Translations under genes and position numbers: made by a program
Shown here: positions 39,559 through 57,800 of the stretch, piece by piece
Position numbering within the stretch: position 1 is the stretch's first letter
How the letters are laid out: each line of letters starts with the position of its first letter
Notes under the pieces: generated by a model
The model's database searches: none
The model's input: the letters and a program-made list of their open reading frames with translations, nothing else
What the model was told of the DNA's origin: nothing
NCBI GenBank assembly: GCA_045587385.1
Contig: JAZNCE010000048.1
Coordinates: forward strand, 9,797 to 73,796
Length of the DNA stretch: 64,000 nucleotides
DNA from: Eubacteriales bacterium
GTDB lineage: Bacteria > Bacillota > Clostridia > Oscillospirales > CAG-272
Direction of reading: 5' to 3'

Positions 39559-39607
39559 AGAAAAAAAGGATAGGGAACGCAAAGCGTGATGTTCTTATCG
39601 GAGAAAT
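39559..39607. repeat. Putative attL: host half-site AAGAAAAAAAGGATAGGGAA plus element half-site GTTCTTATCGGAGAAAT
   Basis: The host arm (39559-39577) is the inverted repeat of 57782-57800. The element arm (39591-39607) is a 16/17 inverted repeat of 57752-57768. Confidence 0.65.
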
Positions 39608-39626
39608 CACAAAAAACCGAATAGGA

Positions 39627-39672
39627 CAAGAAAACTCCATCATGGACAAAAGTCTGTGATGGAGTTTTCTTG
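39627..39672 (-). terminator. Terminator of the minus-strand cargo operon
   Basis: Perfect 16-bp stem CAAGAAAACTCCATCA / TGATGGAGTTTTCTTG with a 14-nt loop. T-rich tract downstream on the minus strand. Confidence 0.6.
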
Positions 39673-39754
39673 TTGCTTACCCTCCAAAACTTGCGTCGGA
39701 GGAAGCAAAGAATATACTTGGTGAAAAAAGCATAGTGAGATTAGCGACTTTTTG

Positions 39755-40444
39755 TCATTTGATTACAAGTTCTATGGATATAAGAGTCAACTTACCATCA
39801 TCAGTAAAGTTGAAAACACTTATACAATCAGCAAAATGATTTGCGTGCCAACCCATACTGGCGTATTGTTCTAATAATATTTCCTCCACTCCGTCATTAT
39901 TGATGTCAACTACCTCCACGGTTTTGAAACTATCAATCATGAAATTAGGAGATCCTTTGGGCGAACCATCTGCATTAAACAGATACGAAAACAGATAAGT
40001 ATCCTCCTGCACGACATACTCTTTCTCATATCCGGTTTCTTGGTGCCTGAATATGATCGCGCCGTCTCTAACCGTTACTTCAATATCCATGTTCTTATGG
40101 GCGGATAAGTATTCTGCAGAATCGAATACTACTTTGTCGTATTTATTATCTGCATCGGATTTCCCATAGATGACGGTGTGATATTGTCCCTGCCCTCCGA
40201 AAATGTCCAGTAAAGATTGTTGGCATAAGTAATCCGGTGTTCCATCCCCATCGCTATCTAATAAAGAAAATTCTTTATAAAGCGGAGATTGGGTGTGAAA
40301 TAATTGATTATTGTCTTCCGTTTTGGATGGAACGTTACTTTCCATTTCTACATTTTCCTCATGCTCGCCTGAACACGCACTAAAAGAATATACACAGACA
40401 AATACCGCGAGTAGTATGGTCAGGACTCTTTTTACCCTTTTCAT
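39755..40444 (-). CDS. Lipoprotein with DxDxDG (FG-GAP/VCBS-like, Ca-binding-type) motifs
   Basis: MKRVKRVLTILLAVFVCVYSFSAC lipobox. DSDGDGTPDY and DINNDGVEE. Confidence 0.6.
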   Translation of the reverse strand: MKRVKRVLTILLAVFVCVYSFSACSGEHEENVEMESNVPSKTEDNNQLFHTQSPLYKEFSLLDSDGDGTPDYLCQQSLLDIFGGQGQYHTVIYGKSDADNKYDKVVFDSAEYLSAHKNMDIEVTVRDGAIIFRHQETGYEKEYVVQEDTYLFSYLFNADGSPKGSPNFMIDSFKTVEVVDINNDGVEEILLEQYASMGWHANHFADCISVFNFTDDGKLTLISIELVIK

Positions 40445-40469
40445 TGAAAAAATATTGATAGACATATTA

Positions 40470-40691
40470 TCATCGCTCGTATTCATACCACCAACAGCCT
40501 ACCCGTTCACTCGGATAGACCCAAGCATTGATGTGGGAATTACCACACGCAATTTGTCCATATTTATTCTTGTTTTGGTGTTCTGCGTACCGGCAATCAC
40601 TACAATTATTGCTACTGCAAAAGCTTCCGCAAGGAATCTTTATCTTATTCTGAGAAGTCTTGTTGTTCTGGTTAATCTGATTGTTTTTCAT
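40470..40691 (-). CDS. 73-aa Cys-rich protein with N/Q/K-rich N-terminus (unknown)
   Basis: Strong RBS (AAGGAG, 8-nt spacing). Six Cys, including CGSFCSSNNCSDC. No signal peptide. Confidence 0.55.
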   Translation of the reverse strand: MKNNQINQNNKTSQNKIKIPCGSFCSSNNCSDCRYAEHQNKNKYGQIACGNSHINAWVYPSERVGCWWYEYER

Positions 40692-40729
40692 AATAAAAAT
40701 CTCCTTTAAATAAATTTTTTGGTTGTCAG

Positions 40730-41152
40730 TTAAATAATGTTTATCGGTTCATCAAAAATGATCACTCTATTCAGCATTCTCTCAGCTTTGTACCCGTATA
40801 GCTTGTTTTCGGAAATAACGTATACGGGAAAATAGAGGTGGTCGATGTCAGGTGGCATAGCCATCATAATATACTCAATGTATGCCTTATCCGCGGAAGA
40901 TAATGTACATTGATTGTTCAAATGGCTGTGTACTATACCTGCAAAACGCCATCGTTGCCAGCGCTCAATAACTTCATTTAAATACTCCACGTTTGGGGTA
41001 TACATATACCGATTGATGTCTTCGATTCGATCAAAAACCACTTCGCAGATGTCGTCCGCGCGGTCTGCTCCGAGCACGGCTCCGATTTCGTGATCACAAG
41101 CCCCTTGGGATGTGTCAGCAATAAGATCGTAAATTTCCTTGTATATCGTCAT
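40730..41152 (-). CDS. Stand-alone JAB/MPN+ (JAMM) metallopeptidase
   Basis: Exact HxHx7Sx2D motif in GIVHSHLNNQCTLSSAD, with an upstream Glu (DHEIGAVLG). AAGGAG RBS. Confidence 0.75.
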   Translation of the reverse strand: MTIYKEIYDLIADTSQGACDHEIGAVLGADRADDICEVVFDRIEDINRYMYTPNVEYLNEVIERWQRWRFAGIVHSHLNNQCTLSSADKAYIEYIMMAMPPDIDHLYFPVYVISENKLYGYKAERMLNRVIIFDEPINII

Positions 41153-41162
41153 GGGTTTCTCC

Positions 41163-42182
41163 TTAAGATTTTTTGTGCTGAGCTTTGAAGAAAGCTTCTT
41201 TGCGTTTGTTCGATTTACAATATGGGCAGGAGTAGAGACCTTTCTTATATTTGTGTAGTGGATTTTTCTTGCACGTATTTGTTATCTCTTTTTCATAGGC
41301 AGATAGTGCATTGAAATACCATTCAATCGGAACATTTTCGCCATTGAAAGTCTTTTGAAATAAATTTTGCAGTCGATAGGTCAGGCATTTATATGGCAAA
41401 CTGTAAATCGGGGGTTGATATCCTGCCGGACATTGTCCCTGTACATAAGGAAACTGGTAATTGCACATCAGCTCTGTGGGCTGTGGAACATTTTCGGTTG
41501 TGTTTCCTTTAGCAACTCCGACAGCGAAAGGATGGGCATCTATGATCAGTTGGAAGAGCATTAACGCTAAGGCAAAAATATCACTCTCCATTGAGAAAGT
41601 CGGCAAGGGCGCAGTTTTAAGCGTTTCTCCCTTGGGAATCGAGTTAGCAACGATTGAATACTCAGGAATACATACGTCACAACGGAAAACCTTGCCGCTC
41701 TTTTGATCTGATATATGCCATGAATCAACATCAATGAGTCGAACAAAGCCTGTGACGGGATCGATTAAAACGTTGAATGGATTAAGGTCACCAATCACAA
41801 TACCAGCCTCTTTGTGAATCGAGTACAGCAGTGCAGTCATGTTCTTTGCGATTGTACAGCGTTTTTCCATGTCAAGTGATTCGTCATCCCAGATCTCATT
41901 CAGCGGAACACCATTGACTCTTCGCATTACGAATCCCACGCACTTCCCGTTTCGATACAATATGTCTTTCGGATAAGCAATCTGGTCTTCGAGATTTGCC
42001 GGAACGCCCAATCTCAACATCGTTCTCAACTTTTCTTCTCGATATGAATTACAAAGCTCAGGCTTGTAAAGCTTAGCTATAGCACCGCTGTAATTTACCA
42101 CTTCAAAGATAGTAGCTTCACCGCCTCGTCCGCATTGTTTGCCAAGGATATAGCGACTTCCGAGCAAAGATTGATATTCCAT
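41163..42182 (-). CDS. Ser/Thr protein kinase-like protein (TerY-P-type) with C-terminal zinc-ribbon-like CxxC
   Basis: Start MEYQSLLG after AAGGAGG. G-loop GRGGEATIF, AIAKLYK (Lys), catalytic loop IGDLNPFNVLI, IDVDS in place of DFG. C-terminal CPYCKS. Confidence 0.75.
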   Translation of the reverse strand: MEYQSLLGSRYILGKQCGRGGEATIFEVVNYSGAIAKLYKPELCNSYREEKLRTMLRLGVPANLEDQIAYPKDILYRNGKCVGFVMRRVNGVPLNEIWDDESLDMEKRCTIAKNMTALLYSIHKEAGIVIGDLNPFNVLIDPVTGFVRLIDVDSWHISDQKSGKVFRCDVCIPEYSIVANSIPKGETLKTAPLPTFSMESDIFALALMLFQLIIDAHPFAVGVAKGNTTENVPQPTELMCNYQFPYVQGQCPAGYQPPIYSLPYKCLTYRLQNLFQKTFNGENVPIEWYFNALSAYEKEITNTCKKNPLHKYKKGLYSCPYCKSNKRKEAFFKAQHKKS

Positions 42183-42196
42183 ACAATCCTCCTTTC

Positions 42197-42904
42197 TTAG
42201 ATTTGGGGCAAAGGAAACACGTTCCACGCTTCATATTTTTCCTTGGGATAAGGAAGCATACAAAATCCATCATAAGAAACCTTATTTTCTGCACATATAG
42301 CTACGGTCGGATCTAACGGATACCACTTGTCCGAAAGGCGTATTAATGCCCAAGCGTGAGGCACACCGTCATGCGTTCCTTGAACGCAAACAAGCGGAAT
42401 ATCTAATAAATCAGCGCAGATCTTGTAAGCTAATGTTGCAGCTTTGCAAATTCCTTTGGCATACAACAGAGGGCCTGCCGGGGTATGTGCAAACTTATGC
42501 TTTTCGTATTCAAAATCATAGACCACGTGCTTGGAGAAATACTCGTACACCGCTTTAGCTTGCTCAACTTTGCTATTGCTCACAGATTTAGCGTACGCGG
42601 CTATTTTTTGTGCTTGATTTTCCATTTCCAATCGTACAACCTTATCTTTTTCAGAATCCAAAAAATAATGGAATTCTACGCAGAAGACCAATTCATTATA
42701 TGTCTTGAACGTGTATTGTTGAAAAAATGAGATGTTGGGATGCTCGAGAATGATACAATCAATAATTTTTTCAAGATCCTCCGGTCTGAGGAAAGGCACG
42801 AAGGTCCTCTCCTCGTGATTTTTCAATGCTTCCAATAATTTCATGTAAGTTTGCTGTAGATGTTTCGGTAGAAACTGATAATAATAAACATAAGTATTAT
42901 TCAT
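42197..42904 (-). CDS. Transglutaminase-like cysteine-peptidase-fold protein
   Basis: Cys-His-Asp arrangement GICKAATLAY...VPHAWALIRL..KWYPLDPT. Its start overlaps the PP2C stop by 8 nt. Confidence 0.65.
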   Translation of the reverse strand: MNNTYVYYYQFLPKHLQQTYMKLLEALKNHEERTFVPFLRPEDLEKIIDCIILEHPNISFFQQYTFKTYNELVFCVEFHYFLDSEKDKVVRLEMENQAQKIAAYAKSVSNSKVEQAKAVYEYFSKHVVYDFEYEKHKFAHTPAGPLLYAKGICKAATLAYKICADLLDIPLVCVQGTHDGVPHAWALIRLSDKWYPLDPTVAICAENKVSYDGFCMLPYPKEKYEAWNVFPLPQI

Positions 42905-43970
42905 TTCTTTTCCTCAACAGTTTATCAAAAGCAAGCTTAATCCTTTTGAGAAGTGATTCGCGGATAGCATCTTGGGACTTGTCTGTTACGACCGCATCCC
43001 CTATTTCCGTTTGATCGGTCTCTGCGTCGAGAGTTGCATACAAAAGTTTACGCCTTTTTTTGAAGAGCTGCTGCCAATCCGGGGGCATATAGTATTTCGG
43101 GGGTCTTGCAGAAGGGATCACATTTGTAGAACATATCAGCGCCGTCTTGTCATCAGTTATAGAGTCCAACAATAGAAACAATCCAGCTGATTTTTTTATA
43201 CTGCCCATAACGTTCTGTGCAACGGATTTATTCAATCCGTATTTGCGTAAAGATCTAAACATGGCCGTATAGACCAAATTACGAGAAATTGCTTTTGGAT
43301 TATCCACAAGATCCGATAACGTTACCCCTTTGTGTTTTAAATACCTGATCGTGTTGGAATCGGAAAGCAACATCAAAAGCGGAACGTATAGTCCATCGGT
43401 GTCTTCAATTGCCGGTTGCCTGATTTTGTCCATAATTCCATCGGTGGCGCATATAATCGAAACTATTTCTTGATCTATTCGATCTATGTGCCAGTATTTT
43501 GCGCCCGAACGCAGTGTAAGGACACATTGATCGACTCTTTGGCAAGGTGTCAAGTTCACATATTTACCGTTGGTTTGCTGAGCTATGATGCCGCCATCTC
43601 CGCAATGCCCGTAATAAAAAGTTGAGGTGACGTAATCATAAACAATGACCATTAAAGTAGTGTCGTACTCCGCAAGGTCCTCTTTGGCTTGATCCGCTTG
43701 ACGTTTTATATTTGAAAGGGCTTTTTGATAGGCCGTACGAATAAGAGATTTGACAACAAGCTCGTTTCTGTCTACCAATGGATAGTTTTCAACAATAAAT
43801 GTTGCAACAGTCTCCACTGCAAGACTGGATCCCTCGCCGCCGCATTTAGCAGATCCTACGCCATCCGCGATTGCAGCAACAAACAAATCTTCCTCGTGGA
43901 GGACGCAATATGCGTCCTCCGAAGTTTTGTGATGCTTTCCCGGAACGTAAGCAACATTACATTTTAGCAT
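42897..43970 (-). CDS. PP2C-family Ser/Thr phosphatase
   Basis: SEDAY, AIADGVGSAKCGG, HCGDGG, CATDGIMD metal-binding Asp blocks. GGAGG RBS. Confidence 0.75.
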   Translation of the reverse strand: MLKCNVAYVPGKHHKTSEDAYCVLHEEDLFVAAIADGVGSAKCGGEGSSLAVETVATFIVENYPLVDRNELVVKSLIRTAYQKALSNIKRQADQAKEDLAEYDTTLMVIVYDYVTSTFYYGHCGDGGIIAQQTNGKYVNLTPCQRVDQCVLTLRSGAKYWHIDRIDQEIVSIICATDGIMDKIRQPAIEDTDGLYVPLLMLLSDSNTIRYLKHKGVTLSDLVDNPKAISRNLVYTAMFRSLRKYGLNKSVAQNVMGSIKKSAGLFLLLDSITDDKTALICSTNVIPSARPPKYYMPPDWQQLFKKRRKLLYATLDAETDQTEIGDAVVTDKSQDAIRESLLKRIKLAFDKLLRKRNE

Positions 43971-44002
43971 AGCATAATGACCTCCAGGACAAAATGGAAT
44001 AA

Positions 44003-44725
44003 TTACCAGTCAGATGGCACTACGGCGAATCCCTGAGGCAAGGGTCCTAGCTGACAATTGTTGCCATCGCTAATAGCGCGGCTATAGGAGATAGTCGATA
44101 TGCTCTCAGAAAGCCAGTCAAACAATCCCGAGAGAGCCCCTTCATCGGTGCATTGAATCGTCCTTTTACTGAGGCTGGCAAGAGTTTGCATATCTGTGTT
44201 CTCAAGTCCAACCCCACAGCAGAACAGTCTGATTTTTTTCTGATCTTCACGTTCTCGCAATCTTTTTTTGGCTTCTTCCAAACTATCCGAGGGAAGGCCG
44301 TCTGTAACAACCATGACAAAAGGAGTAAATGCTGGAGTGCCGATAGATGAATAGACTCTGTTTCTTTCTCTGGTTAATTCAATAGATTTGATGATTGCCT
44401 CACCAAGAGGCGTGGTACCTTCCGCAACTATTTCAAGTGGGGGCTGTTTTACAAACTCGGCCATAGGTATCCAATCTTGAATCACCTTTACACCACGCCC
44501 ACCAAATGTTAATACGCACACATCCACTCTCTTCAACGTAATCGGGTCGGATGAATTAGATTTCTTAAAATTTTCGATTCCGTCAATAACGGCTTGGAGC
44601 TTTGATCCGTTGTTCATTGACCCTGATTCGTCAATCGCAATAACTGCCGCCAAATGCCCCTCCGAACAGGCTAAAATTTCGTTATAAGGTGCCTGCTTAA
44701 TTTCAATAGAGTTGTTAGTTGACAT
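44003..44725 (-). CDS. TerY-like von Willebrand factor A (vWA) protein
   Basis: MIDAS DESGSM, TPLGEAI and VVTDGLPSD. 240 aa, no signal peptide. Confidence 0.75.
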   Translation of the reverse strand: MSTNNSIEIKQAPYNEILACSEGHLAAVIAIDESGSMNNGSKLQAVIDGIENFKKSNSSDPITLKRVDVCVLTFGGRGVKVIQDWIPMAEFVKQPPLEIVAEGTTPLGEAIIKSIELTRERNRVYSSIGTPAFTPFVMVVTDGLPSDSLEEAKKRLREREDQKKIRLFCCGVGLENTDMQTLASLSKRTIQCTDEGALSGLFDWLSESISTISYSRAISDGNNCQLGPLPQGFAVVPSDW

Positions 44726-44784
44726 ATTTATTTCCCTTTCTCATTATCAATTATTATTTTAAAATCGTTGATTTGTATAACGTC

Positions 44785-45324
44785 TTATTTAACCTTTATG
44801 TTTGTAATAGTGCAGTTCTTCGCTTGGTATGTCCATGTTCCGTTCATATAGGGATCTCTCGCTCTTCCGTAAGGATATTTATACATCAAATCGTGTACAG
44901 AAACTCTGCAATTGTCATTCCGAGAGCAAATGTTCTGCTTAGCTACCAAGTATTCAATCGTAATTTTGTATGTCACACCTTTCTTAAGCCCTTTAAGAGT
45001 TGAAGATACGGAAGAAGGTGTAAGATCAAAGCTATCTTTAATATAGAACACTTTCGTACCGTTAATGGCAGGGGTAATTGTCAATTTCAACTCCGGAGCA
45101 TCACATCTATGACCGTAAGCCTTTGCCCCAGTAGATGTGAACTTAATTGAAGCGTTATTACCTGTCGCACGAACCGTAAAGGTTACTTTTGAATCAGCAT
45201 TAAAGGTGCGTGGTGTAGTGGATGCAGCTGACGCGCTAACGCTGAAAACACTTATGCTCGAAAGCAACACTGTGCAGAGGCAGAGGATGGAGATGAGTTT
45301 GGTGAATGTTTTTTTGATTTTCAT
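44785..45324 (-). CDS. Secreted beta-rich protein (unknown)
   Basis: Signal peptide MKIKKTFTKLISILCLCTVLLSSISVFSVSASA. AAAGGAAG RBS. Confidence 0.6.
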   Translation of the reverse strand: MKIKKTFTKLISILCLCTVLLSSISVFSVSASAASTTPRTFNADSKVTFTVRATGNNASIKFTSTGAKAYGHRCDAPELKLTITPAINGTKVFYIKDSFDLTPSSVSSTLKGLKKGVTYKITIEYLVAKQNICSRNDNCRVSVHDLMYKYPYGRARDPYMNGTWTYQAKNCTITNIKVK

Positions 45325-45457
45325 GTTAAAAATCTTCCTTTCTTTGATAAAATATGGTTTGATTGTGGTGGACCTCTCCTTAATTTAAGAAACCTCCTCT
45401 CTTTTTTGGAGAGATCCGTTAGGTGGATTTATATAATAAATTGTTTGAACTCTGAAA

Positions 45458-46369
45458 TTAGAGGCAGGCCGCGAAGATTGTAAAAAATCCTTTGTGATCT
45501 TTTTTGGGATGTTCATACAGAAAATCATCGTTCGATTCGTATGTGGCACGGTCATAGGTGAAGTACAAATGGATCTTTTTGCCAAGTCTGCTTGTCAAAT
45601 CAGCAAGTTCTGCGGCGTGGGTTTTATCCTCTGCCACTATGATTACGGATAACTCATCGCCAATTTTGATATTTGTATTGGATTTTCTGTGTTTATATAG
45701 TTTGATAACTCTCTCAAGCTTATCCATGAGATCATCGTTAGCAGTAGGTGTTCTTCTGGCAACCTCAACAAAGCTACGTACAACCTCGTCATTATCATCG
45801 AGAATCATTGCCGTGGGTCTCACGATTATGGAGGCCTTCTGATTTTCATTTTTTGCCTCTACAAAGGCAACATTAGCCACTTTGATATTATCATATTTGC
45901 CAGCGATCAAAAGCTGGTTTGCTGCGAGGATACGTTTGTATCCGAATACGTCTAATTCCGATAAGTAACCACCAAGTCTGTATCGAATTCCCTCAGATGC
46001 TAACAGGGACACTCCGCGACCGGCGATAATATACCCTTTTCCGGAGAAGTATCCTGTCGCGGATTCAAACGACAATTTTTGGACGAATCCTGAAGCCGAC
46101 AATTTCTTTAAGTGCCACTGGATTTCGTGCTTTGTGTAGCTATAGCCCTTATTTGTAAAAAGACGAAACAACAATTCCGACGTAACTACAAGGTGAACGG
46201 AAAGAGCTCGACAAATCTCTCGATCAAGATCAACGATTAAAATCGAGGTGGGCCTGTCAACAGTGTGTCTGCGAACGTATTCGCTATCATAGTCAAACAC
46301 GCTGAACGGACTCTTCTTTTCGTCAATTATGGTTGTATTTTCTTTCATATTTAAATTCTGAATTTTCAT
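45458..46369 (-). CDS. wHTH protein, replication-relaxation-family-like (possible D..ExK nuclease-type motif)
   Basis: wHTH-like segment DREICRALSVHLVVTSELLFRLF...HLKKLSASGFVQKL. YDNIKVANVAFVEAK. GGAGG RBS. Family call is tentative. Confidence 0.4.
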   Translation of the reverse strand: MKIQNLNMKENTTIIDEKKSPFSVFDYDSEYVRRHTVDRPTSILIVDLDREICRALSVHLVVTSELLFRLFTNKGYSYTKHEIQWHLKKLSASGFVQKLSFESATGYFSGKGYIIAGRGVSLLASEGIRYRLGGYLSELDVFGYKRILAANQLLIAGKYDNIKVANVAFVEAKNENQKASIIVRPTAMILDDNDEVVRSFVEVARRTPTANDDLMDKLERVIKLYKHRKSNTNIKIGDELSVIIVAEDKTHAAELADLTSRLGKKIHLYFTYDRATYESNDDFLYEHPKKDHKGFFTIFAACL

Positions 46370-46505
46370 TATTATGTATCCTCCAAAAAATTATTGTCAT
46401 CGGATTGATTGGTAACAATGACCATCATCTCAAATTATCGTGAAATATATGTGAGAGTGCCTTATCAAGGCGGTCGAATTAGTATCTTCATTATATAATC
46501 ACCTC

Positions 46506-46781
46506 TTAAGCGACATCTTCAGCAAACTGAAGAACGCTTTCAATCACTCCTCTTGGGAAGCGATCTTCAAAGAGTTTTGTGATATATACGAGGACTTGGC
46601 TGCCTACGCTCCATCCTCCGAACACATAGCTCATAGCAGACTTGCCATTCTCAAGCTGAAGCTCTACGATACATCCGGATGGTGTCCTTCTGCGTACGAT
46701 TCCTTGATAGGACGAATAAAGTTCCACATCTTGGTTGTTGATACTTGAATTTACTGGTGAATTATGATATAATATTTCCAT
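46506..46781 (-). CDS. Small OB/S1-like protein (unknown)
   Basis: GGAGG RBS. YQGIVRRRTPSGCIVELQLENGKSAMSYV...GSQVLVYITK resembles the S1/OB pattern. Confidence 0.4.
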   Translation of the reverse strand: MEILYHNSPVNSSINNQDVELYSSYQGIVRRRTPSGCIVELQLENGKSAMSYVFGGWSVGSQVLVYITKLFEDRFPRGVIESVLQFAEDVA

Positions 46782-46887: not shown

Positions 46888-49800
46888 ATGACAGCGTTTA
46901 GGCTTGTTTACCAATATCTTAAACATCGAAAAGGCATGAGTATAGAATCATTAGCCGAAAATTTGTATATGAGTCCTGAAACCGTGAAAAAATGGTTAAA
47001 GAATGGTTTTAGGGCAAACAATATTACTCCTGAAAAGATTGCAAATCAACTTTTTGATTCAGATGCTCTTATGGAAGATTTCATAAACTACTTGGACAAC
47101 ATAGGCTTTTCTTTTTCTCAAAAAGCAAACGGAGAAATAAATACAGATACATTCATTAATGCCCTATCCTCTCTTTTGCAAAATGATTCGCCCAACAAAT
47201 TCCCTGATGATTTTGGAAAAAACAAAAATTTGACAGCAGAAAATGTACAAACTACTGTCAATATTGTTTTTTCAATTATAGATACTATATCTAATATCTC
47301 TCTCCCCGACTATTCCACATTGACAAACACAAACAGCAAGTACTGTACTGTTAGCCGAGCTACACTTATATCGCTTGCTAAGCATTGTTTGAATATAGAT
47401 ATAGACAATGAGCTTAGTGAAGGATGTACAGTTGATGCGTTGAATCAGCATATTCAAGATAATCCCTGCGATTTTCTTAAAGAATTTGCTAAGCAAGGGT
47501 ATAAATTTGAAGAGAAAAACGAGTTGGTTGTTGTTAAAGCTTTGAATCATACCAATACCGAAGTTAATGACGACACATTGTTTGAAACCTTAAAAACACT
47601 GTTTGAGGCATACAAACTTTTCGATCATTCAGATGTATCGTGCCTTAAAAAGAAAGAAATTAATATAACATTAAGCACGTTTTCCAACGCACTGGCCTTT
47701 CGCGGACTATTCATTACTCCCGAGCGCAAAAAATATTTCTGTGAATTTGTTCGTTATAACATACTGACAAGTAACCACGATTGCAACTATATATATCCTA
47801 TACTCTATAGTGTAAAGGAACAGTATGCCGGGAAAATAGAAAAAAGCCCGCCTCTTGTGCAAGTCGGGCTTGAAAAAACAATTGAATTGGTGGGCGAATA
47901 TTGCAATAATATTTTCCTAACAGATAACAATACCCTTCCTTTCATTCCAAATTTTCTTGCAACATTGGATTTTTATGATGTTGATAATTCTCAAAGGGTT
48001 AGAATACTTGAAGATCTTATCTTTAATAAGAAAGCCTATGATATAAGACTAATAAAAGCTCTTGCGAGTATTAATTCGAGTCGTTTGATTATCTGTCAAA
48101 AATACATTGAATCAACAATTTTTTCTCTATCAGATAAAGTCATCACCGAAGATATACGACGTGAACTTGTTGCATTCGTTTGCATGTTTGGCCGAGGCAC
48201 ATTTGAGCCTCTCGTCTATTTTGAAGCAAAAACCAATAAAAACTTTTTAAACTCCTTTTCAAGATTCACAAACTTTGTTTCGAGGAATTTTGACATCATT
48301 GTTTCCCATAATCATATACGTCGAAATGATATGGCACAAGGTTTATCGTATATTTTACTCACTATGAGTAGATATGATAAAAATTTAGCTAAAGCAACTC
48401 TACGCAACGTTAGATTGGAAAAGTTTGAAGACCATAAATTATTGACGGAAACATGTAAATTTATTATTGATGGGGAAGTTAGCTTTCGCTGTGCTACAAG
48501 TTTTACTAAAAGCTTTTCAAAAAGGAAAGATTTCTTTGATTATGTAGAAACTCATCTGATATGTTCAAAAAATCCGTTTTTGGAAAACGATAACGCAATG
48601 ATGTTAGAGGTCCTAAGCCAAATTCGTTCAGCTGCCAGAAAGAAGAATAATGAAGAAGACGATGATATAGAATTATCACAAAATTTAAAGGATTTCGCAG
48701 ACAACCTTTTGTTTTGGATTACTGAGGCTGCAATGGAAGATGTTAGACAAAATAGGCCAGTCCGTCATTTGTTTTGGCTTGCCAAGCAGTACCCTAATTG
48801 TATTAACTACGAATTAAACAACGATTATAACGAAAAAAGATCGGATGTTTTTGTTCAATTAATAAAGAATAGTAATTTTGAAATAATATTACCAAGCCAT
48901 TTTCAAAACATATGGGATGTATTTAGTTTGAAAACAAAACAAGATCTCACATTTGCGGGAGAACTCGATAAATGCATTTCTTATCTGTTTGAAAAGAATA
49001 AGCAATTTGAAGCACTCGACTTCATTATTTCAAACTATCGATTTGCTAGCACAATCAACCGGGCAAGAATTTTATGTTGTATTAAATCATTAGCAAACAG
49101 CCCGGAATTGTCAAATTTATCCTCGCCTATACTTTCAAAAGTTATCGGTTTTGCAAAAAGAAACTACGCTGATGAGGAATTGGGAGAAATCAAAGAACGG
49201 TTAATCCTCTCGTTGTCGCAACTTAAAAAGAGTAATAGGATATCTATCTATGATAGGTTTAATGCGTATTACAAATTATTAGACAAGCCTCTTGCAGAGA
49301 AAATAGCTCTTTCTATTACCATCGACGAAGCTGATAAGTATTTAACTTTTGTAGATGATGTGCTTGATTCAAAATATAATTCATGGCAAAGAGCTTGCCT
49401 CAAGGGCTTACTTTCAAATCTGTTACATCCCTCAATTTTTTGGACATTGAACTTAGATCGTCAGATCAAGTTGATTCATTACGTAAAAAATAAAGGAGAG
49501 TATTATGCAGACTTAAAAAATCTAATGCAAGATATAGTTGACAGAAACAACTTCTCTATCTTAGACTCAAGGCTCCGAACTGCGTTAACCATTCACTGCC
49601 ATAACTATATTGATCTCAAATATCCTCAAAACGCGTGTTTCCTTGAATTTCTTGAAAACACTTTAAACAAATTGACACAGAACGCTTATACACACTCAGA
49701 AATCAGAAACACTTACGGGTTAAAAACCGATACTCTTATTTACCATATTGTAGATGCATTTAAAAATCAACCCCAAAAAACTGCAATAATATGTGTTAGC

Positions 49801-50739
49801 TCAATTTGCAAAATATATAAGCAATTATCAATTCTTTCTACAGAACAAGAGTGGAACCCCTACAAAGCGTCTTTGTTAGCAGACAGAATCAAATTGTTCC
49901 CTGCAATTGTAGCAAATCCCTGCATAAATAATATTGCAAAACATTATGCTCGCAAGATGTACGGAATGATTAACAAAGCAAAAATGGATCTCCTTGATTC
50001 GGATTTGAAAGAGTTATTAAATGAACTTAGGAAAATTTGTCAGGATCAGTGGCCAAATTGGTTCGATATACATCCAATTGACATAACATTACTGCAAGAA
50101 GATAAAATCAAAGTTGGAATTGATGTTCCAATAGATAGTTTCTTAATTGATATTAGCGATACTTCTCGTTTTTCTTATGACAAGGCACAGAATGACCTTA
50201 GAAAATGGCGCGAAAATATTGATGCTCGGCCTCGGCCACTGGAACCTTCAGAAAAGAATGAGGTTGTAGCAGTATCCTGTAGAAATGGTTATGTACCGAT
50301 TTCGGGCTGGGGACTCGTATATGAGTGTGTTAAAGAGAAGAGAGATGGCTATTATAGTCCATCTGAAATAAAATCAACTATCATTTCAATAGCTGAAATT
50401 GCTCAAATACAAACAAAAAACAATTCCACACAATCGTTAAATTGCGAGGAAATTATTTATCAGTTCGAAAGAACATTTAATGCTCTGATGACGAGGATAC
50501 CCCAAAAAGCCCAGAAGCATGGACGGTATAATCGGATTTATATACGCGACGATGCATATGACATTATTGATTATAAGATTCTTCCGGATGTCGTTGCTTT
50601 TGTCAATTTCTATCATGATTATATCAAAGGGACATCGGCGCTCGAACCCAAAATAAAGACCTCGGTATTGGAAGCATTTTATGATTATCATAAAATGGTT
50701 CTGCGATTGTTAGATAAAATAATTCTCAAAGAATGCTAA
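46888..50739 (+). CDS. 1283-aa protein: XRE-type HTH N-terminus plus ~1200 aa with no recognisable domain
   Basis: AGGGAGG RBS. HTH segment RKGMSIESLAENLYMSPETVKKWLKNG. The remainder is Leu/Ile/Asn/Lys/Phe-rich. No Walker A, HxH or nuclease motif found by eye. Confidence 0.7.
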   Translation: MTAFRLVYQYLKHRKGMSIESLAENLYMSPETVKKWLKNGFRANNITPEKIANQLFDSDALMEDFINYLDNIGFSFSQKANGEINTDTFINALSSLLQNDSPNKFPDDFGKNKNLTAENVQTTVNIVFSIIDTISNISLPDYSTLTNTNSKYCTVSRATLISLAKHCLNIDIDNELSEGCTVDALNQHIQDNPCDFLKEFAKQGYKFEEKNELVVVKALNHTNTEVNDDTLFETLKTLFEAYKLFDHSDVSCLKKKEINITLSTFSNALAFRGLFITPERKKYFCEFVRYNILTSNHDCNYIYPILYSVKEQYAGKIEKSPPLVQVGLEKTIELVGEYCNNIFLTDNNTLPFIPNFLATLDFYDVDNSQRVRILEDLIFNKKAYDIRLIKALASINSSRLIICQKYIESTIFSLSDKVITEDIRRELVAFVCMFGRGTFEPLVYFEAKTNKNFLNSFSRFTNFVSRNFDIIVSHNHIRRNDMAQGLSYILLTMSRYDKNLAKATLRNVRLEKFEDHKLLTETCKFIIDGEVSFRCATSFTKSFSKRKDFFDYVETHLICSKNPFLENDNAMMLEVLSQIRSAARKKNNEEDDDIELSQNLKDFADNLLFWITEAAMEDVRQNRPVRHLFWLAKQYPNCINYELNNDYNEKRSDVFVQLIKNSNFEIILPSHFQNIWDVFSLKTKQDLTFAGELDKCISYLFEKNKQFEALDFIISNYRFASTINRARILCCIKSLANSPELSNLSSPILSKVIGFAKRNYADEELGEIKERLILSLSQLKKSNRISIYDRFNAYYKLLDKPLAEKIALSITIDEADKYLTFVDDVLDSKYNSWQRACLKGLLSNLLHPSIFWTLNLDRQIKLIHYVKNKGEYYADLKNLMQDIVDRNNFSILDSRLRTALTIHCHNYIDLKYPQNACFLEFLENTLNKLTQNAYTHSEIRNTYGLKTDTLIYHIVDAFKNQPQKTAIICVSSICKIYKQLSILSTEQEWNPYKASLLADRIKLFPAIVANPCINNIAKHYARKMYGMINKAKMDLLDSDLKELLNELRKICQDQWPNWFDIHPIDITLLQEDKIKVGIDVPIDSFLIDISDTSRFSYDKAQNDLRKWRENIDARPRPLEPSEKNEVVAVSCRNGYVPISGWGLVYECVKEKRDGYYSPSEIKSTIISIAEIAQIQTKNNSTQSLNCEEIIYQFERTFNALMTRIPQKAQKHGRYNRIYIRDDAYDIIDYKILPDVVAFVNFYHDYIKGTSALEPKIKTSVLEAFYDYHKMVLRLLDKIILKEC

Positions 50740-50753
50740 AGGGAGGAATCAAT

Positions 50754-51311
50754 TTGATTAAAAACGATAACAACATTCAATTAAATGCGATGGAAGAAAG
50801 CACCGTCAAAGCATTTCATACTGTTATATCCAGTATCCTTGAAGAAAAGGCATTTTCAATCTCAATTGGAATTACAAAAAGCGCTTTTGCTGAAAAATAT
50901 TTGGAGTTAGACCTTCCGTTGAAACCCGAAGACGGCGATAAAATTGATCCTCTTTGCGTTACAATGAAAAATGGAGTGTTTTATCTTGAATATTTTTATA
51001 GAGCAGAGTGCATATCGAATGAGCTCGGCTGCATCGCTACCAACGAAATCAATAGTAACCTGAATAATCTTCCAACAAAATGCGTCTATAGCCAACACGA
51101 AGAAGGTTTTTATATTTCGGCTGTATTTTATAATTCCGAAGATATCATCGAAGTAACAAACGCGGTGCTTCTTGTTCTTGAATATCTCATAATATTAGAG
51201 AATTTTTTAAAAGGAAAGGCAACAGATATGGAAACCGAGCAGGCATTTGATGCCATAGCAGCTGGCGGTGGTTATGTTTCGTCTAAGATTGAGGATTTTA
51301 ATATTTGTTAA
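50754..51311 (+). CDS. Hypothetical protein, partner B of the giant HTH protein
   Basis: GGGAGG at 50742-50747, then TTG at 50754. Alternative starts are ATG 50733 (overlapping the upstream stop) and ATG 50790. Confidence 0.55.
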   Translation: MIKNDNNIQLNAMEESTVKAFHTVISSILEEKAFSISIGITKSAFAEKYLELDLPLKPEDGDKIDPLCVTMKNGVFYLEYFYRAECISNELGCIATNEINSNLNNLPTKCVYSQHEEGFYISAVFYNSEDIIEVTNAVLLVLEYLIILENFLKGKATDMETEQAFDAIAAGGGYVSSKIEDFNIC

Positions 51312-51325
51312 AAATGGAGACTAAT

Positions 51326-52321
51326 ATGGATATTGTGAGCAAATTGAAAGAAAAGTTTGACGAGTATGGGTTAATGGATATCGCTGAAAGCTTTTGTGAG
51401 AGTTATAAATTAGCTATTAAGGATATGTATCCGGAAATCAGATTTGATAATGACGCGCTCCCATCCGACGATTGCTTTAAAACGCTCGTTGCTGTAAAGC
51501 AATCCATAATAGCAGACAAGGATCTATCATCAAAACGCGATTTAACGGACTTGGAAATTAAACGAATACTCGAAATTCCTTATACTCAAGTTCAGCAAGT
51601 TAAAGAGTTGATATGTGACTCGTATGATTACCAGCATGACGTAATAGAAAGTTATTATGGGAAAAATCTTTCCATGTATTTTATTACACCGGTAACGGTG
51701 AAAAAAGTATTTGAATATTTATCTGAAAAATTCGAGAATGAAATATGCAAACATGTATTTCTTGATTCTCTTATTCTTGGATACGAAGAAACAACAAACA
51801 GAATAGATACTTTGATAGCTTGTACAGGAATAGCTGCCACCGAGATTCTGTATGAAACGTATTGCAGAAACGGAAAGCTGGGCTATCTGCTATACCCCTA
51901 TTATACAAATCCGAAAAAGGCTATTAAATATTTATCCGAAAGACTTGATAAAAGCACGGTCGCCCACATACTCAAAACAGATTTTTGGTATCTATATGCC
52001 TACAAGGATGACGGATATCAAGGCGTCGCGACACACGGACATGATCAAGAGTATGTTGACCGAGTTGTTAGCGTCTATAAAGCGCAAGAAAATATTGCCA
52101 TTGCTTTCCATAATACAATGAATCAAGTCACAAAAGAAAATGCTCAAAATCTATGGGAAGAAACATTTTTGCCAAGATACAGCAAAATAAAAGACCATTT
52201 TTTGCAATATCCCCCGTGCCCACTTTTGACCAAATCTTTGTATGGCGTGATTACGATGTTTGACAGATACGAAATTGAGCTTAGCAATGAGTTTGCGTTT
52301 TATTCTTTAGATAGGACATGA
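51326..52321 (+). CDS. Hypothetical protein, partner C
   Basis: GGAG lies 5-6 nt upstream of ATG 51326 (alternative ATG 51314). Begins within 15 nt of the upstream stop (TAA 51309-51311). Confidence 0.55.
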   Translation: MDIVSKLKEKFDEYGLMDIAESFCESYKLAIKDMYPEIRFDNDALPSDDCFKTLVAVKQSIIADKDLSSKRDLTDLEIKRILEIPYTQVQQVKELICDSYDYQHDVIESYYGKNLSMYFITPVTVKKVFEYLSEKFENEICKHVFLDSLILGYEETTNRIDTLIACTGIAATEILYETYCRNGKLGYLLYPYYTNPKKAIKYLSERLDKSTVAHILKTDFWYLYAYKDDGYQGVATHGHDQEYVDRVVSVYKAQENIAIAFHNTMNQVTKENAQNLWEETFLPRYSKIKDHFLQYPPCPLLTKSLYGVITMFDRYEIELSNEFAFYSLDRT

Positions 52322-54428: not shown

Positions 54429-54749
54429 ATGGACAACCAAGACACTAAAAGTTCAATCATTGCATTCAGAGTCACGCCCGAGGAAAGAACGTGGATCGAG
54501 AAACATTCCTACGGTAATTATCGCGTCATTAGCGATTTTGTTCGGGATTGTGTACTCAAAAAAGACATCGTCATCGTCAAAGGTCTCGATGAATTCTCAA
54601 ACGAATTACGGCGCATCGGTAACAATTTGAATCAGCTTACGAGAGCTGTCAATGCAGGATATGTCCGCGCCGTTGACCTCACAGAAACGAAGGAGGAGAT
54701 GGAAAAGCTATGGCAATCGTTAAATTCGTTACTGCGCGATGTCCCATGA
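54429..54749 (+). CDS. mobC: MobC-family relaxosome accessory protein
   Basis: AAAGGAG RBS. Hallmark RRIGNNLNQLTRAVN. Confidence 0.75.
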   Translation: MDNQDTKSSIIAFRVTPEERTWIEKHSYGNYRVISDFVRDCVLKKDIVIVKGLDEFSNELRRIGNNLNQLTRAVNAGYVRAVDLTETKEEMEKLWQSLNSLLRDVP

Positions 54750-55696
54750 ATAATATCTTTCCGTACGTGATGAATTCCAAGAAAACAGATGGCGGCGTCC
54801 TCGTTTCAGGCATCCACTGTATGCCCGAAACCGCGCTGAATGAATTCCGTTTCGTCAAAAACAAATTCGGCAAGACCGATGGCAGACAGTACTATCATAT
54901 CGTGCAATCCTTCAGTCCCGACGATAATCTTGACGCTGAAACCGCCCATGAGATTGGGCTGAAGTTTGCCGAATTCTATCCCGGATATCAGATCGTAGTT
55001 GCCACCCATTGTAATCGCTCACACCTCCACAGCCACATCATAATGAACTCCGTGAACATGGAAAACGGCAAAAAGTTTCACCAAACAGCAAGCGAGCTGG
55101 CTCGGGTAAAAGAATATTCCAACAAGTTTTGTCAGGAGTATGGACTCTCGGTTACCGAGGTGAAATCCTCCGCTCAGCTGTACCACAAGTGGAAGGATTT
55201 GCTTATCAGAAAGGCATTTTCTATCGCCAACCGCACACGTTCCAAGGAAGAATTCATCTGGGAAATGGAGATGCACGGCTACAAGGTTGCCTGGAAGGAC
55301 AACCATAAGTATATCACTTTCACCACTCCCGACGGTCATAAATGCCGTGACAATAAGCTCTTTGCAGAGCAACTCCTGCGAAAGAATTTGGAGATATACT
55401 TCGCTCTCGGCGGTTGTGAATCAGGACTTGCGGATCAATACAAGCGGTATGTAAACCACTCTCAACCCGAACACACCTACACCGTTGGCAACGGACTCTT
55501 CAATCTGTTCAAAAGCTTGTTGGAAAGCATTCCGTATGAAGAAAGATTCACACCGCCTGTTGAAGATCACCAACTCGACAAAATGACCGTGATGATACTT
55601 GAATCAATGGGCATCAAGGTCGAGCCTAAAGCGCTCTTCTACTATTCTGCAAATAATCAGCAGGAAGAAGAACAGGGCTATGGGCTCTGGATGTAA
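54710..55696 (+). CDS. Relaxase/mobilization nuclease (MobA/VirD2-type)
   Basis: YYHIVQSFSPDD and the His cluster THCNRSHLHSHIIMNSV. Overlaps the mobC 3' end. Confidence 0.75.
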   Translation: MAIVKFVTARCPMNNIFPYVMNSKKTDGGVLVSGIHCMPETALNEFRFVKNKFGKTDGRQYYHIVQSFSPDDNLDAETAHEIGLKFAEFYPGYQIVVATHCNRSHLHSHIIMNSVNMENGKKFHQTASELARVKEYSNKFCQEYGLSVTEVKSSAQLYHKWKDLLIRKAFSIANRTRSKEEFIWEMEMHGYKVAWKDNHKYITFTTPDGHKCRDNKLFAEQLLRKNLEIYFALGGCESGLADQYKRYVNHSQPEHTYTVGNGLFNLFKSLLESIPYEERFTPPVEDHQLDKMTVMILESMGIKVEPKALFYYSANNQQEEEQGYGLWM

Positions 55697-55741
55697 TCAA
55701 AATTTGCACCGCAAAACAAAGAAAAAGCAGAAAGGAAATTA

Positions 55742-55990
55742 ATGACCAATAATTTAAACGAAAATATTTTTACAACATTCTCGGATGAAGCTGTAAGCAA
55801 TCGCCGCCGCAGTATCTATCTTTCAAGTGAAAAGACTATAGGCAAAATGCATTATACCGTTGTTTCCGCTTTCCCAATGCCCTATGATGATGTTGATGCT
55901 GAATCAGCATCGGATAAAATTGCCTATCTGATCAAAGGCGAGAAAGTTAACAAAAAGTTATCTGGACTTATGGAAGGAGATGCGGTATGA
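55742..55990 (+). CDS. Small hypothetical protein
   Basis: AAAGGAAA RBS; 82 aa. Confidence 0.4.
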   Translation: MTNNLNENIFTTFSDEAVSNRRRSIYLSSEKTIGKMHYTVVSAFPMPYDDVDAESASDKIAYLIKGEKVNKKLSGLMEGDAV

Positions 55991-56056
55991 TGTGTTTGTA
56001 TCCTATTCGGTTTGATTTTACAGAATCCATGGGATTCGGAAAGGAATGAAACTATT

Positions 56057-57700
56057 ATGAAATCAAGCCACAATTTAATAACCGCCCTCTATTGCCGTCT
56101 CTCGCAAGAGGATATGATGCAAGGCGAGTCAAACAGCATCAGAAATCAACGCATGATCCTGCAGAAATACGCCGAAGACCACGGCTTCCGTAATATCGAA
56201 TATTATATCGATGACGGATACAGTGGAGCAAATTTCAACCGTCCCGATTTCAAGCGTATGATGTCAGATATCGAATCCGGCAAGGTTGCCACGGTTATCG
56301 TCAAGGACCAATCACGTCTCGGTAGAGATTATCTGCAAACGGGTATGCTGATGGAGATCACTTTTCCTCAGTATGACGTTCGGTTCATTGCCATCAACGA
56401 TGGCGTGGACAGTGCCAACGGTATCAGCGATTTTTCGGGCATTAAGAACTACTTCAACGACTTCTACGCCCGTGACACCAGCAAGAAGATACGAGCCGTA
56501 CAGCGAGCCAAGGGCGAGCGTGGAGAGCGTGTCGGCACAGCCATCCCATACGGATATATGAAGGATCCAGATGATCCAAAATGCCTTGTACCAGACAAGC
56601 CTGCCGCGGAGGTAGTGAAGCGGATATTTGAGATGTATACCAAAGGGATTGGTATACGAAGAATATGTGCCATACTCGAAGCAGAGAAAATCGAAAGCCC
56701 AAGCGTATATCTGTTCAAAAAGTGCGGAAACCGTTCGGGAAGACCAAATTTCCAAAAGCCGTATAACTGGGTAAAGACTACTGTGCGAAAGATGCTTTCC
56801 AACAGAATATATTGCGGAGATACGGTCAACTTTCAGACCTATTCAAAATCCAACAAACTCAAAAAGCGTATCAAGAACGCAGAGGAAGATATGTTGATCT
56901 TTGAGAACACCCATGAAGCAATCGTTGATCGCAAAACCTTCGACATGGTTCAAAAGCACTTTGAGGGCAGAAAGCGCCCCGATATACAGGGCGAGATGGA
57001 CAAATATGCTGGATACATCTTCTGCGGTGAATGCGGTTCGAGATTGTATCTGCACAGAGCCTTCAGCATTGATCCCGAAAAGAACTTTTTCCAATGTGGC
57101 GGATATCAGACCAAGGGGAAAAGCCACTGCACTGCCCATTATATCAACGAGAACGTGGTAGATACCATCGTGCTTGCTGATCTCAAGCGCGTAACCGAAT
57201 ACGCTCGAAGTCGCACGGAAGAATTCTATGCTATGGCTACAGAAAACGGTGAGGCAGAGGCAAGGAAGTTCTATGCAAATGCAGAAAAAGAAAAGAGACG
57301 GATCGATAGCCGAATCAAAGAACTCGACAATATCATCCGTTGCTTATACGAGGATCGGGTAACAGGCAGAATCACGCCCGAACGCTATGATACGATGGCA
57401 GGTGGCTACGAACAGGAGCAAGCCTCGCTCCGAGAGGAATTGAAAGCACTTAACGAACAGATGAACGAACTGGATATGCGTGAGCATTACGTCAATGAGT
57501 TTATCGCCAAGGCAAAAGAGTATATCGAAATGCCAAAGCTCACGCCCGAACTGCTCCGAGTGTTCATCCGTAAAATTGAGGTGATGGAGAAAACCGAAAA
57601 ATATTCCCGTACCTGCGGGAATACCATCATCATTCACTACACATTCGAATACCCGAGGCAGTGTACCACCAATCCCGTCAATAACGAGAAAACCGCCTAA
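56057..57700 (+). CDS. Large serine recombinase (integrase of the IME)
   Basis: ALYCRLSQED (catalytic Ser context), YIDDGYSGANFNRPDF, VIVKDQSRLGRD. Recombinase and zinc-ribbon region (CGECGSRLY...C) and a coiled-coil C-terminus. Confidence 0.85.
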   Translation: MKSSHNLITALYCRLSQEDMMQGESNSIRNQRMILQKYAEDHGFRNIEYYIDDGYSGANFNRPDFKRMMSDIESGKVATVIVKDQSRLGRDYLQTGMLMEITFPQYDVRFIAINDGVDSANGISDFSGIKNYFNDFYARDTSKKIRAVQRAKGERGERVGTAIPYGYMKDPDDPKCLVPDKPAAEVVKRIFEMYTKGIGIRRICAILEAEKIESPSVYLFKKCGNRSGRPNFQKPYNWVKTTVRKMLSNRIYCGDTVNFQTYSKSNKLKKRIKNAEEDMLIFENTHEAIVDRKTFDMVQKHFEGRKRPDIQGEMDKYAGYIFCGECGSRLYLHRAFSIDPEKNFFQCGGYQTKGKSHCTAHYINENVVDTIVLADLKRVTEYARSRTEEFYAMATENGEAEARKFYANAEKEKRRIDSRIKELDNIIRCLYEDRVTGRITPERYDTMAGGYEQEQASLREELKALNEQMNELDMREHYVNEFIAKAKEYIEMPKLTPELLRVFIRKIEVMEKTEKYSRTCGNTIIIHYTFEYPRQCTTNPVNNEKTA

Positions 57701-57751
57701 AAAGCAGGCAACCCGGAAGACTAAATGCCTTCCGGGTATGCCTACCGCCTT

Positions 57752-57800
57752 ATTTCTCCGTTAAGAACAACAGAGGAAAAATTCCCTATCCTTTTTCTTT
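57752..57800. repeat. Putative attR: element half-site ATTTCTCCGTTAAGAAC plus host half-site TTCCCTATCCTTTTTCTTT
   Basis: Mirror image of attL (see 39559-39607). The junction lies within the A-run at 57777-57781. Confidence 0.65.

Follow-up and report, generated by a model that had tools for sequence, protein, structure and literature searches.

In the present study, we analysed a window of 64,000 nucleotides of DNA from a Eubacteriales bacterium (assembly GCA_045587385.1, contig JAZNCE010000048.1) and a putative integrative mobilizable element that lies in it between murA and a convergent zinc-ribbon gene. The results indicated that this 18.2-kb element very probably integrates and excises through its own TnpX-like large serine recombinase (LSR), with exchange at the dinucleotide AA and with the loop of a terminator-like hairpin as its bacterial attachment site (attB). 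The element occupies positions 39583-57778 of the window and is low in GC (0.33-0.47 inside, against about 0.55 outside). An earlier note, made from the sequence alone, had placed a serine-recombinase element between murA (TIGR01072, 497 bits) and a convergent CxxC zinc-ribbon gene, and this placement was confirmed.

Serine integrases bring the dimers bound to attP and attB into synapsis, cleave both sites at the central dinucleotide and exchange the strands by subunit rotation. In the mechanism that we propose, the LSR would bind a 52-bp attP, consisting of two 25-bp half-sites (each a 17-nt arm and an 8-nt spacer) around AA, and would pair it with an attB of about 40 bp; the dimers on the two sites would come together in synapsis, and cleavage at the central dinucleotide would be followed by strand exchange at AA through subunit rotation. 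The attB used here would comprise an A-tract, a 10-bp stem, the loop CGCAAAAA, the second strand of the stem and a T-tract, which form a hairpin; the host repeat that contains it lies between murA and the zinc-ribbon gene. The non-palindromic AA would set the orientation, and the outer A/T tracts are suggested as the main attB contact. The LSR family would read a degenerate motif that is met by bidirectional intrinsic terminators at gene ends, with no single-site specificity. For the A/T tracts, a zinc-ribbon domain shifted as in the Listeria integrase was considered and remains speculative, since the registers showed no obvious fit. The LSR open reading frame (ORF) and both half-sites are intact, and the binding, the strand exchange at AA and current activity are predicted from sequence comparison.

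Junctions, empty site and crossover

The two junctions of the element (attL and attR) were divided into the following predicted parts.

39561..39580, + strand: B half of attB in attL, with A-tract 39561-39567, stem GGATAGGGAA at 39568-39577 and loop CGC; contiguous with B' in the genome G009 and fitting the B-half profile of 80 sites
39581..39582, + strand: core dinucleotide AA in attL, from the comparison of attL, attR and the empty site; AA in 79 of 80 attL sites
39583..39607, + strand: P' half-site of attP, with 8-nt spacer AGCGTGAT and 17-nt arm GTTCTTATCGGAGAAAT
57752..57776, + strand: P half-site of attP, with 17-nt arm ATTTCTCCGTTAAGAAC and 8-nt spacer AACAGAGG
57777..57778, + strand: core dinucleotide AA in attR, from the same comparison; AA in 38 of 50 attR sites of relatives
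57779..57809, + strand: B' half of attB in attR, with loop AAA, stem TTCCCTATCC at 57782-57791, T-tract 57792-57796 and the host-repeat tail; contiguous with B in G009

The inner and outer inverted-repeat pairs described in the earlier note are real, and all four strings are present. On the host side, the right string TTCCCTATCCTTTTTCTTT lies at 57782-57800 as described, and the left string AAGAAAAAAAGGATAGGGAA is a 20-mer at 39558-39577, one position to the left of the start given before (39559). The exact complement covers 15 nt, 39563-39577 with 57782-57796; past it, the A-run (7) and the T-run (5) are unequal and out of register. On the element side, the arms at 39591-39607 and 57752-57768 are complementary at 16 of 17 positions, and the inverted-repeat search extended this pair to 21 nt at 90%. 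The same 18.4-kb region contains 393 inverted pairs of at least 14 nt; among the 25 longest pairs shown, 90% was reached only by the arm pair (I17) and by one local hairpin (I9). By itself, the inverted repeat is not decisive against chance. Chance was excluded for the arms because both lie 8 nt from the same AA and both recur elsewhere, as described below.

The two host flanks were searched separately in 40 relatives. In the same-genus genome G009, both flanks were found on one contig (C103), 8 nt apart, and the uninterrupted site reads GGATAGGGAA-CGCAAAAA-TTCCCTATCC (site sequence GGATAGGGAACGCAAAAATTCCCTATCC; longer readout GCCAAGAAAAAAAAGGATAGGGAACGCAAAAATTCCCTATCCTTTTTCTTTTCG). The attL junction matches this empty site up to CGCAAA, which ends at 39583, and the attR junction matches it from AAAAATT (the A-run at 57777) onward. 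Since attL matches the empty site through CGCAAA, positions 39578-39583 are host DNA, and the agreement of attL and attR with G009 therefore places the exchange within the first three A of the run. AA is common to attL, attR and the empty site, and no longer target duplication was observed.

These results bear directly on the model of the earlier note, in which attB was GGATAGGGAA(A0-3)TTCCCTATCC, the crossover lay at 39576-77 and CGCAAA belonged to the element. That model has the appeal of a tidy, near-perfect palindrome, and an A is present at both junctions. Against it, G009 has CGCAAAAA between the stems, the arms would lie asymmetrically at 13 and 8-11 nt from the core, and host-variable sequence reaches the AA that precedes N-GCGTGAT in 80 other attL sites. 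We regard it as highly improbable. Several of its components were nevertheless retained. The outer repeat is a split attB in the form of a terminator-like hairpin with an A-run and a T-run, as the fold and terminator scan of the G009 site indicated, with an 8-nt loop in place of A0-3. The inner repeat corresponds to the arms of an attP of about 50 bp (52 bp), at a distance of 8 nt on both sides and not 11-13 nt. The crossover does lie in the A-run, at 39581-82(83) on the left and not at 39576-77. The proposed search for an empty site succeeded, with a loop that differs from the predicted one by 5-6 bases, and the predicted attP junction had wrongly included CGCAAA, which is host DNA by comparison with G009.

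The predicted crossover is the AA at 39581-82 and 57777-78. With this placement, both 17-nt arms lie exactly 8 nt from the core, and attP is a symmetric 52-bp site, 57752-57778 followed by 39583-39607. The same AA is the midpoint of the 8-nt attB loop, which it splits 3+2+3, and so forms the symmetry centre of both attP and attB. A crossover at the second and third A (39582-83 and 57778-79) fits attL, attR and the G009 empty site equally well, and the third base after ATCACGG is nearly always A in the attR sites of relatives. This placement is disfavoured by symmetry, since only the AA at 39581-82 gives two 8-nt spacers and a 3+2+3 loop. In addition, position 39583 is variable in other attL sites, and the two bases that precede it are AA in 79 of 80. 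We therefore consider the second-and-third-A crossover unlikely and keep the AA at 39581-82. Two metagenome contigs fit the corrected element ends: record 17 of X3 matches the element without difference from exactly 39581, with 42 unrelated letters before it, and record 16 of X2 matches up to 57776 and continues with 30 unrelated letters.

The hairpin that serves as attB belongs to a host repeat, and a second hairpin lies to its right.

39313..39580, + strand: left portion of a host repeat of about 300 nt that occurs in many copies, contains GTGATAT and ATATCAC modules and continues at 57779-57809; its hairpin is attB
57811..57852, - strand: hairpin rich in GC with a T-run after it, probably the zinc-ribbon gene's own terminator; read from the sequence and conserved in G005, which lacks the repeat here

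The repeat covers 39313-39577 of the left flank and the first 28 nt or so of the right flank. It is about 300-350 nt long and opens with a hairpin; its three GTGATAT and four ATATCAC modules are spaced about 20 nt from each other, and a second hairpin, with A- and T-tracts, lies inside it. Many partial matches to it were found across the genus and order, a search of the element's own genome gave 17 matches, and an alignment of 10 copies revealed that the A-tract, hairpin and T-tract of attB are a conserved part of the repeat. Other copies (L244-L252) end in sequences that resemble inverted repeats, and complementary half-stems with A/T tracts lie on both sides of them, as though the repeat were itself an insertion into terminator loops. 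In three same-genus genomes (G005, G012 and G004), murA and the zinc-ribbon gene are separated by a spacer that is free of the repeat and has a complete GCCTCCCC...GGGGAGGC hairpin; only the left half of this hairpin is kept in the window, and the match to G005 resumes at 57810. The element sits in the hairpin loop of a repeat that, in turn, appears to lie in a terminator loop. Given this nested setting, the attB hairpin is terminator-like and is not the native common terminator of murA and the zinc-ribbon gene. The earlier note had taken it for that native terminator, a claim that is contradicted by the absence of the repeat from the spacer of the three genomes and by the zinc-ribbon gene's own hairpin at 57811-57852. 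The latter hairpin was not in the output of the terminator scan, whose loop limit it may exceed. With Rfam, the copy in the window matched Gut-1 (RF01706) at 45.0 and 24.1 bits, below the gathering threshold of 50, and nothing was found at gathering in 8 repeat copies.

The recombinase and its half-sites in other genomes

The recombinase gene sits at the right end of the element and reads outward. A pair of short motifs is associated with the gene and with the P' half-site.

56012..57700, + strand: LSR, 562 aa; Pfam Resolvase, Recombinase, Zn_ribbon_recom and DUF4368, and alignment with TnpX
56000..56011, + strand: ATCCTATTCGGT, a conserved motif of 12 nt that stands immediately before the LSR ORF
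39616..39627, + strand: 12-nt motif ACCGAATAGGAC, a short way inside P' and complementary to the motif at 56000-56011 (inverted-repeat search)

The LSR consists of a resolvase catalytic domain (PF00239, residues 25-172), a Recombinase domain (PF07508, 198-320), a zinc-ribbon (PF13408, 333-392) and a DUF4368 domain (PF14287, 487-545; 44.8 bits against a cut-off of 25). The best solved-structure match of the catalytic domain was TnpX (2mhc, E 5e-39), and the nucleophilic-serine motif YxRLS (ALYxRLS) is kept in the alignment with TnpX. This LSR subtype is present as a single copy in its own genome, where the next-best match is 37% identical; 13 other, more distant serine-recombinase matches were also found there. 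Among 79 relatives (61-93% identity), the motif ATCCTATTCGGT occurs just upstream of the LSR gene with at most 2 mismatches in most, and some match to it was detected in 71 loci. The motif ACCGAATAGGAC also adjoins the P' arm in loci L191 and L152 and in genome G041. The 12-nt motif may be a regulatory or accessory site. Some relatives have both copies, the motif and its complement, upstream of the LSR gene and about 26 nt apart.

The P' half-site was searched in the genome contig collection as the 24-mer 39584-39607, which gave 87 exact occurrences in other genomes; flanks and cores were counted in the 80 of these for which DNA was fetched. The outer flank was different at all 80 sites, and the core position was AA at 79 of them. 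The base between the core and the 24-mer varied (A 62, T 13, G 4, C 1). The interiors of the elements that carry the 24-mer fell into several unrelated classes. On the P side, the 25-mer was exact in only 2 other genomes, with different outer flanks that each end in a T-run, and a 22-mer was found in 16 metagenome contigs, all integrated and with further different flanks.

The P side was also followed through the recombinase gene, with LSR relatives at 80 loci (61-93% identity). In 48 of the 80, the P arm was found with at most 3 mismatches about 100 nt past the LSR stop codon, followed by an 8-nt spacer, the core and a variable flank; several of the 32 loci with no P-arm match end at a contig edge. 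The pooled attR cores (n=50) were AA in 38 cases, TT in 7, AT in 2, GA in 2 and TA in 1. The relative L044, whose LSR is 93% identical and which is the only relative above 90% on hand, is integrated at a different target with a different B'. In addition, all 18 elements with two identified ends (described below) have the same core at both ends, either AA or, when the element is reversed, TT. Collectively, these comparisons indicate that conserved, symmetric half-sites travel with the LSR gene and that the many unrelated targets follow one degenerate motif.

Target sites and mini elements

The site profiles revealed a common target motif of an A-tract, about 12 nt, AA, about 12 nt and a T-tract. 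The A content was 70-92% at positions -18 to -13, and the T content was 72-88% at +13 to +18. Between the tracts, the 12 nt before AA are C/G-rich and the 11-12 nt after it are G-rich, the B half being rich in C and the B' half in G.

To compare cognate flanks, 18 two-ended elements were used: the element of the window, an 11-kb element in G041, and 16 same-contig pairs chosen by eye from pattern matches in 36 genomes with the P' 24-mer. The cognate flank duplex was -17 kcal/mol or lower, corresponding to a strong hairpin, in 11 of the 18 pairs, and the non-cognate flank combinations had a mean of -8.1 kcal/mol (standard deviation 3.2, n=306). The G009 site folds at -25.2 kcal/mol (z -5.2), with none of 200 shuffles as good, and it was called terminator-like by the terminator scan on the window's + strand only. 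The targets also lie at gene ends. With an ORF of at least 70 codons and a stop within 120 nt as the rule, 66 of 77 attL sites lie past the stop of an ORF that reads toward the site (mostly by 17-28 nt), and 1379 of 5000 random positions in the element's own genome satisfied this rule. A convergent ORF ends within 120 nt of 32 of 45 attR sites. Taken together, these results suggest that insertion usually takes place at gene ends, in terminator-like hairpins that would be cut in the loop. The attB hairpin is predicted to act in termination.

The same pairs allow another explanation, in which the mechanism is unchanged but the LSR reads only the DNA sequence (the outer A/T tracts and AA), terminators are struck for carrying this motif, and the hairpin, cruciform or RNA structure is irrelevant. 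Known LSRs bind duplex DNA. The stems are wholly different between sites, and 7 of the 18 pairs have the A/T tracts with flanks that are not complementary; the hairpin is therefore not obligatory. A multi-targeting example is described only as T/A-enriched at its ends in the passages concerned of PMC10083194. On the other side, the strong cognate complementarity of the 11 pairs is far above that of the non-cognate combinations, and the strand bias of a C-rich B and a G-rich B' would be needless for a motif made of tracts only. The pair data do not separate a structural preference from mere availability. We hold the sequence-only explanation to be a serious possibility, somewhat short of an even chance.

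Several observations weigh against the integration mechanism and the target class as proposed. First, 12 of the 50 attR sites of relatives have TT (7), AT (2), GA (2) or TA (1) in place of AA at the assumed position. Second, the attP or circle junction that the earlier note had suggested mining for was not found: the 80 P'-side genome matches were all integrated, the 2 P-side genome matches and the 16 metagenome matches contained no such junction, and no circle or excision joint was detected in four metagenome runs over 39200-58100, whose contigs are short and in which rare forms are undetectable. These runs left most of the cargo uncovered, and the joints that were seen have short sides (20-75 nt) and look like relatives from other organisms. 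Third, the empty site is a single one, from a relative with 94% flank identity and near the end of a 2.3-kb contig, and it is as consistent with AA at 39582-83 and 57778-79 as with 39581-82, which symmetry alone favours. Fourth, the 7 pairs with no flank hairpin were no better than non-cognate combinations, though their A- and T-tracts are kept; all 18 pairs were selected by eye, and related genomes are not independent. Finally, the ORF-end baseline comes from one genome and a crude ORF rule.

A further hairpin was found just inside the P' half-site.

39626..39673, no strand assigned: internal hairpin (I9) with 22-nt arms, 91% complementary, a 4-nt loop, an A-tract and a T-tract, just inside P'

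Similar hairpins lie just inside P' in many other, unrelated elements. The hairpin may replace the terminator that is split by the insertion and may thereby restore termination for the upstream host gene.

The same half-sites also bound much smaller elements. In 15 of the 16 same-contig pairs they enclose 0.3-2.4 kb, and in the remaining one 7.6 kb. The elements of 0.3-2.4 kb have no LSR of their own because they are too small for the 1.7-kb LSR gene. These mini elements were found on contigs of genomes G049-G078 (loci L228-L243). Their ORFs included DUF559 endonuclease-like proteins (7 ORFs in 16 elements), GNAT acetyltransferases, P-loop kinases, a HAD hydrolase and an alpha/beta hydrolase. 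In the Pfam scan of 22 mini-element ORFs (15 matched a family and 7 none), no recombinase or transposase family was matched. Because the mini elements carry the same half-sites, the P' half-site is far more widespread than the element of the window. We infer that the mini elements are mobilized in trans.

Further arms of the family are present in the element's own genome, on contigs C116, C7, C19, C132 and C134, and the copy on C116 has an exact P' arm. The P'-like arms were located at C116:33460, C7:61453, C19:1320, C132:40866 and C134:9283, with cores of TT or AT and not AA. Three of them have a common interior, which was also seen in other genomes.

Short elements with inverted ends raise the question of a DDE-type transposon, for which the 17-nt arms would be terminal inverted repeats, AA(A) a target duplication and the LSR mere cargo. 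The terminal inverted repeats and the short A repeat at both ends have this appearance, and the small non-autonomous derivatives resemble MITEs (miniature transposable elements with inverted repeats). The gene content points the other way, with no DDE transposase family among the 21 element ORFs scanned and no transposase among the 15 of 22 mini-element ORFs that matched Pfam families. Moreover, the flanking repeat is fixed (AA in 79 of 80 sites), unlike a variable target duplication, and the P arm accompanies the LSR gene in relatives that are 61-93% identical. A DDE origin thus has very little probability in our assessment.

Under the LSR mechanism, a broader reading can be put forward tentatively, and we judge it about as open to doubt as to belief, with a slight lean to doubt. 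The LSR lineage would have adapted in evolution so that bidirectional intrinsic terminators serve it as a general class of landing site, and the same half-sites would bound a large population of cassettes moved in trans. In this reading, the A- and T-tracts at about +/-13-18 bp and the AA of the loop would be read, whatever the stem sequence.

Gene content, known systems and significance

The element and its host neighbours contain the following genes.

37920..39287, + strand: murA (UDP-N-acetylglucosamine 1-carboxyvinyltransferase), left host gene; Pfam EPSP_synthase, NCBIfam TIGR01072 (497 bits, cut-off 392.7)
39755..46781, - strand: cargo genes including a kinase (41163-42227), a transglutaminase-like protein, a PP2C phosphatase and a vWA protein (44003-44725); Pfam, NCBIfam
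46888..52321, + strand: three-gene cargo operon with ORFs of 1283, 192 and 338 aa (the 1283-aa ORF first); no family assignment
54429..54749, + strand: MobC/NikA-like protein, in the mobilization module 54429..55696 (Pfam PF21983, PF05713 and PF03432 for the module)
54710..55696, + strand: MobA/VirD2-type relaxase; Pfam PF03432, with NCBIfam relaxase models below their cut-offs
57937..58242, - strand: convergent right host gene, a CxxC-x17-CxxC, treble-clef zinc-finger protein; Pfam zf_Tbcl and zf_Tbcl_2, TIGR04272

By gene content, the element at 39583-57778 is a probable integrative mobilizable element. A relaxase and MobC of its own are present, no oriT was located, and no type IV secretion system or type IV coupling protein family was found among the 21 element ORFs scanned, of which 12 had no Pfam match at all. 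The same scan, with the same 12 ORFs matchless, named no mating-pore, DDE transposase or phage structural or packaging family. A prophage was considered and dropped, given the mobilization genes and the absence of any phage structural or packaging family named by Pfam in these 21 ORFs.

In four animal-gut metagenome runs, the summed contig depth, which is not quantitative, was far greater over 52451-53081 and 53713-54974 than over the cargo. These stretches comprise MobC together with the region that immediately precedes the mob genes. The contig depth suggests that the mob-region module is common to many elements.

The vWA, PP2C, transglutaminase-like and Ser/Thr kinase genes cluster at 41163-44725 on the - strand. 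The kinase gave weak PADLOC matches to PD-T4-6 (best E 1.5e-11), and no defence system was assigned in the cargo, with PADLOC and NCBIfam giving only these weak kinase matches. For the operon at 46888-52321, nothing was found in PADLOC or NCBIfam, and Pfam gave only a sub-threshold HTH_40. On the host side, the murA family model begins at residue 37 of the ORF, and a sigma-70 gene (Pfam) comes after the zinc-ribbon gene.

The closest known systems are the integrative mobilizable elements of the Tn4451/Tn4453 family of Clostridium perfringens and C. difficile, which have the large resolvase TnpX. The element of the window resembles them in the catalytic domain of its LSR, as described above, and in having its own relaxase with no visible mating pore. 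The core of Tn4451 is reportedly GA, compared with AA here. The element differs from both in its size of 18 kb, its cargo, its apparent terminator-loop targets and the outward-reading LSR at its right end. According to passages of PMC5704250, Tn4451-type elements exchange at a 2-bp identity, have low target specificity and need no directionality factor; the same source gives a MobV relaxase for Tn4451, unlike the MobA/VirD2-type (PF03432) relaxase of the window.

The LSR is a member of the known multi-targeting DUF4368, TnpX/TndX-like clade. Durrant et al. (2022) described a multi-targeting clade in which, according to the parts of PMC10083194 consulted, 63% of LSRs have DUF4368, with Cp36, Pc01 and Enc9 as examples, and one member of which has 21 sites, a TT core and T/A-enriched ends. 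The LSR of the window has DUF4368, and its close relatives are at different targets. Read on the other strand, a TT core with T/A-enriched ends, as worded there, becomes AA flanked by an A-tract and a T-tract. Unlike here, terminator hairpins, gene ends and mini elements are not described in main-text passages of PMC10083194, whose supplementary figures may show the motif.

Two other comparisons concern the target and the mini elements. Group IIC introns use intrinsic terminator motifs at gene ends, with little harm to the host (PMC1702495). As retroelements, these introns enter by reverse splicing at a point downstream of the hairpin, whereas the element of the window is a DNA recombinase element in the loop. 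The 0.3-2.4-kb elements, bounded by the same half-sites and too small for the LSR gene, resemble MITEs and cis-mobilizable elements (CIMEs), which passages of PMC5704250 define as keeping att sites and having lost the integration genes. Unlike CIMEs, they are dispersed single insertions at many terminator-like sites with 1-2 intact-looking genes (DUF559, GNAT, P-loop kinase), rather than decayed remnants that lie in tandem with a parent. No description of terminator-loop targeting by a serine recombinase, or of LSR-bounded mini cassettes, was found in searches of an open-access library, which is not proof of their being unpublished. The terminator-loop preference and the mini cassettes are the parts of most interest.

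Multi-targeting DUF4368 recombinases are already used as genome-engineering tools. The locus yields an exact attP and attB, with the predicted empty site and circle junction corrected by 5-6 bases, and studies of specificity can make direct use of the attB motif, which is defined from some 130 natural sites. The results suggest that at least one DUF4368 lineage has a simple natural target rule, namely a terminator loop, A/T tracts and an AA core. If the landing-class reading is true, any gene end in any host would be a harmless integration site, with the replacement hairpin carried just inside P'. If the mini elements are indeed mobilized in trans, they would form a dispersed system of recombinase-less cassettes of one or two genes, parked at terminators in gut Clostridia and horizontally spread. 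The terminator-loop rule would account for the spread of such elements among many gut Clostridia with no genes broken.

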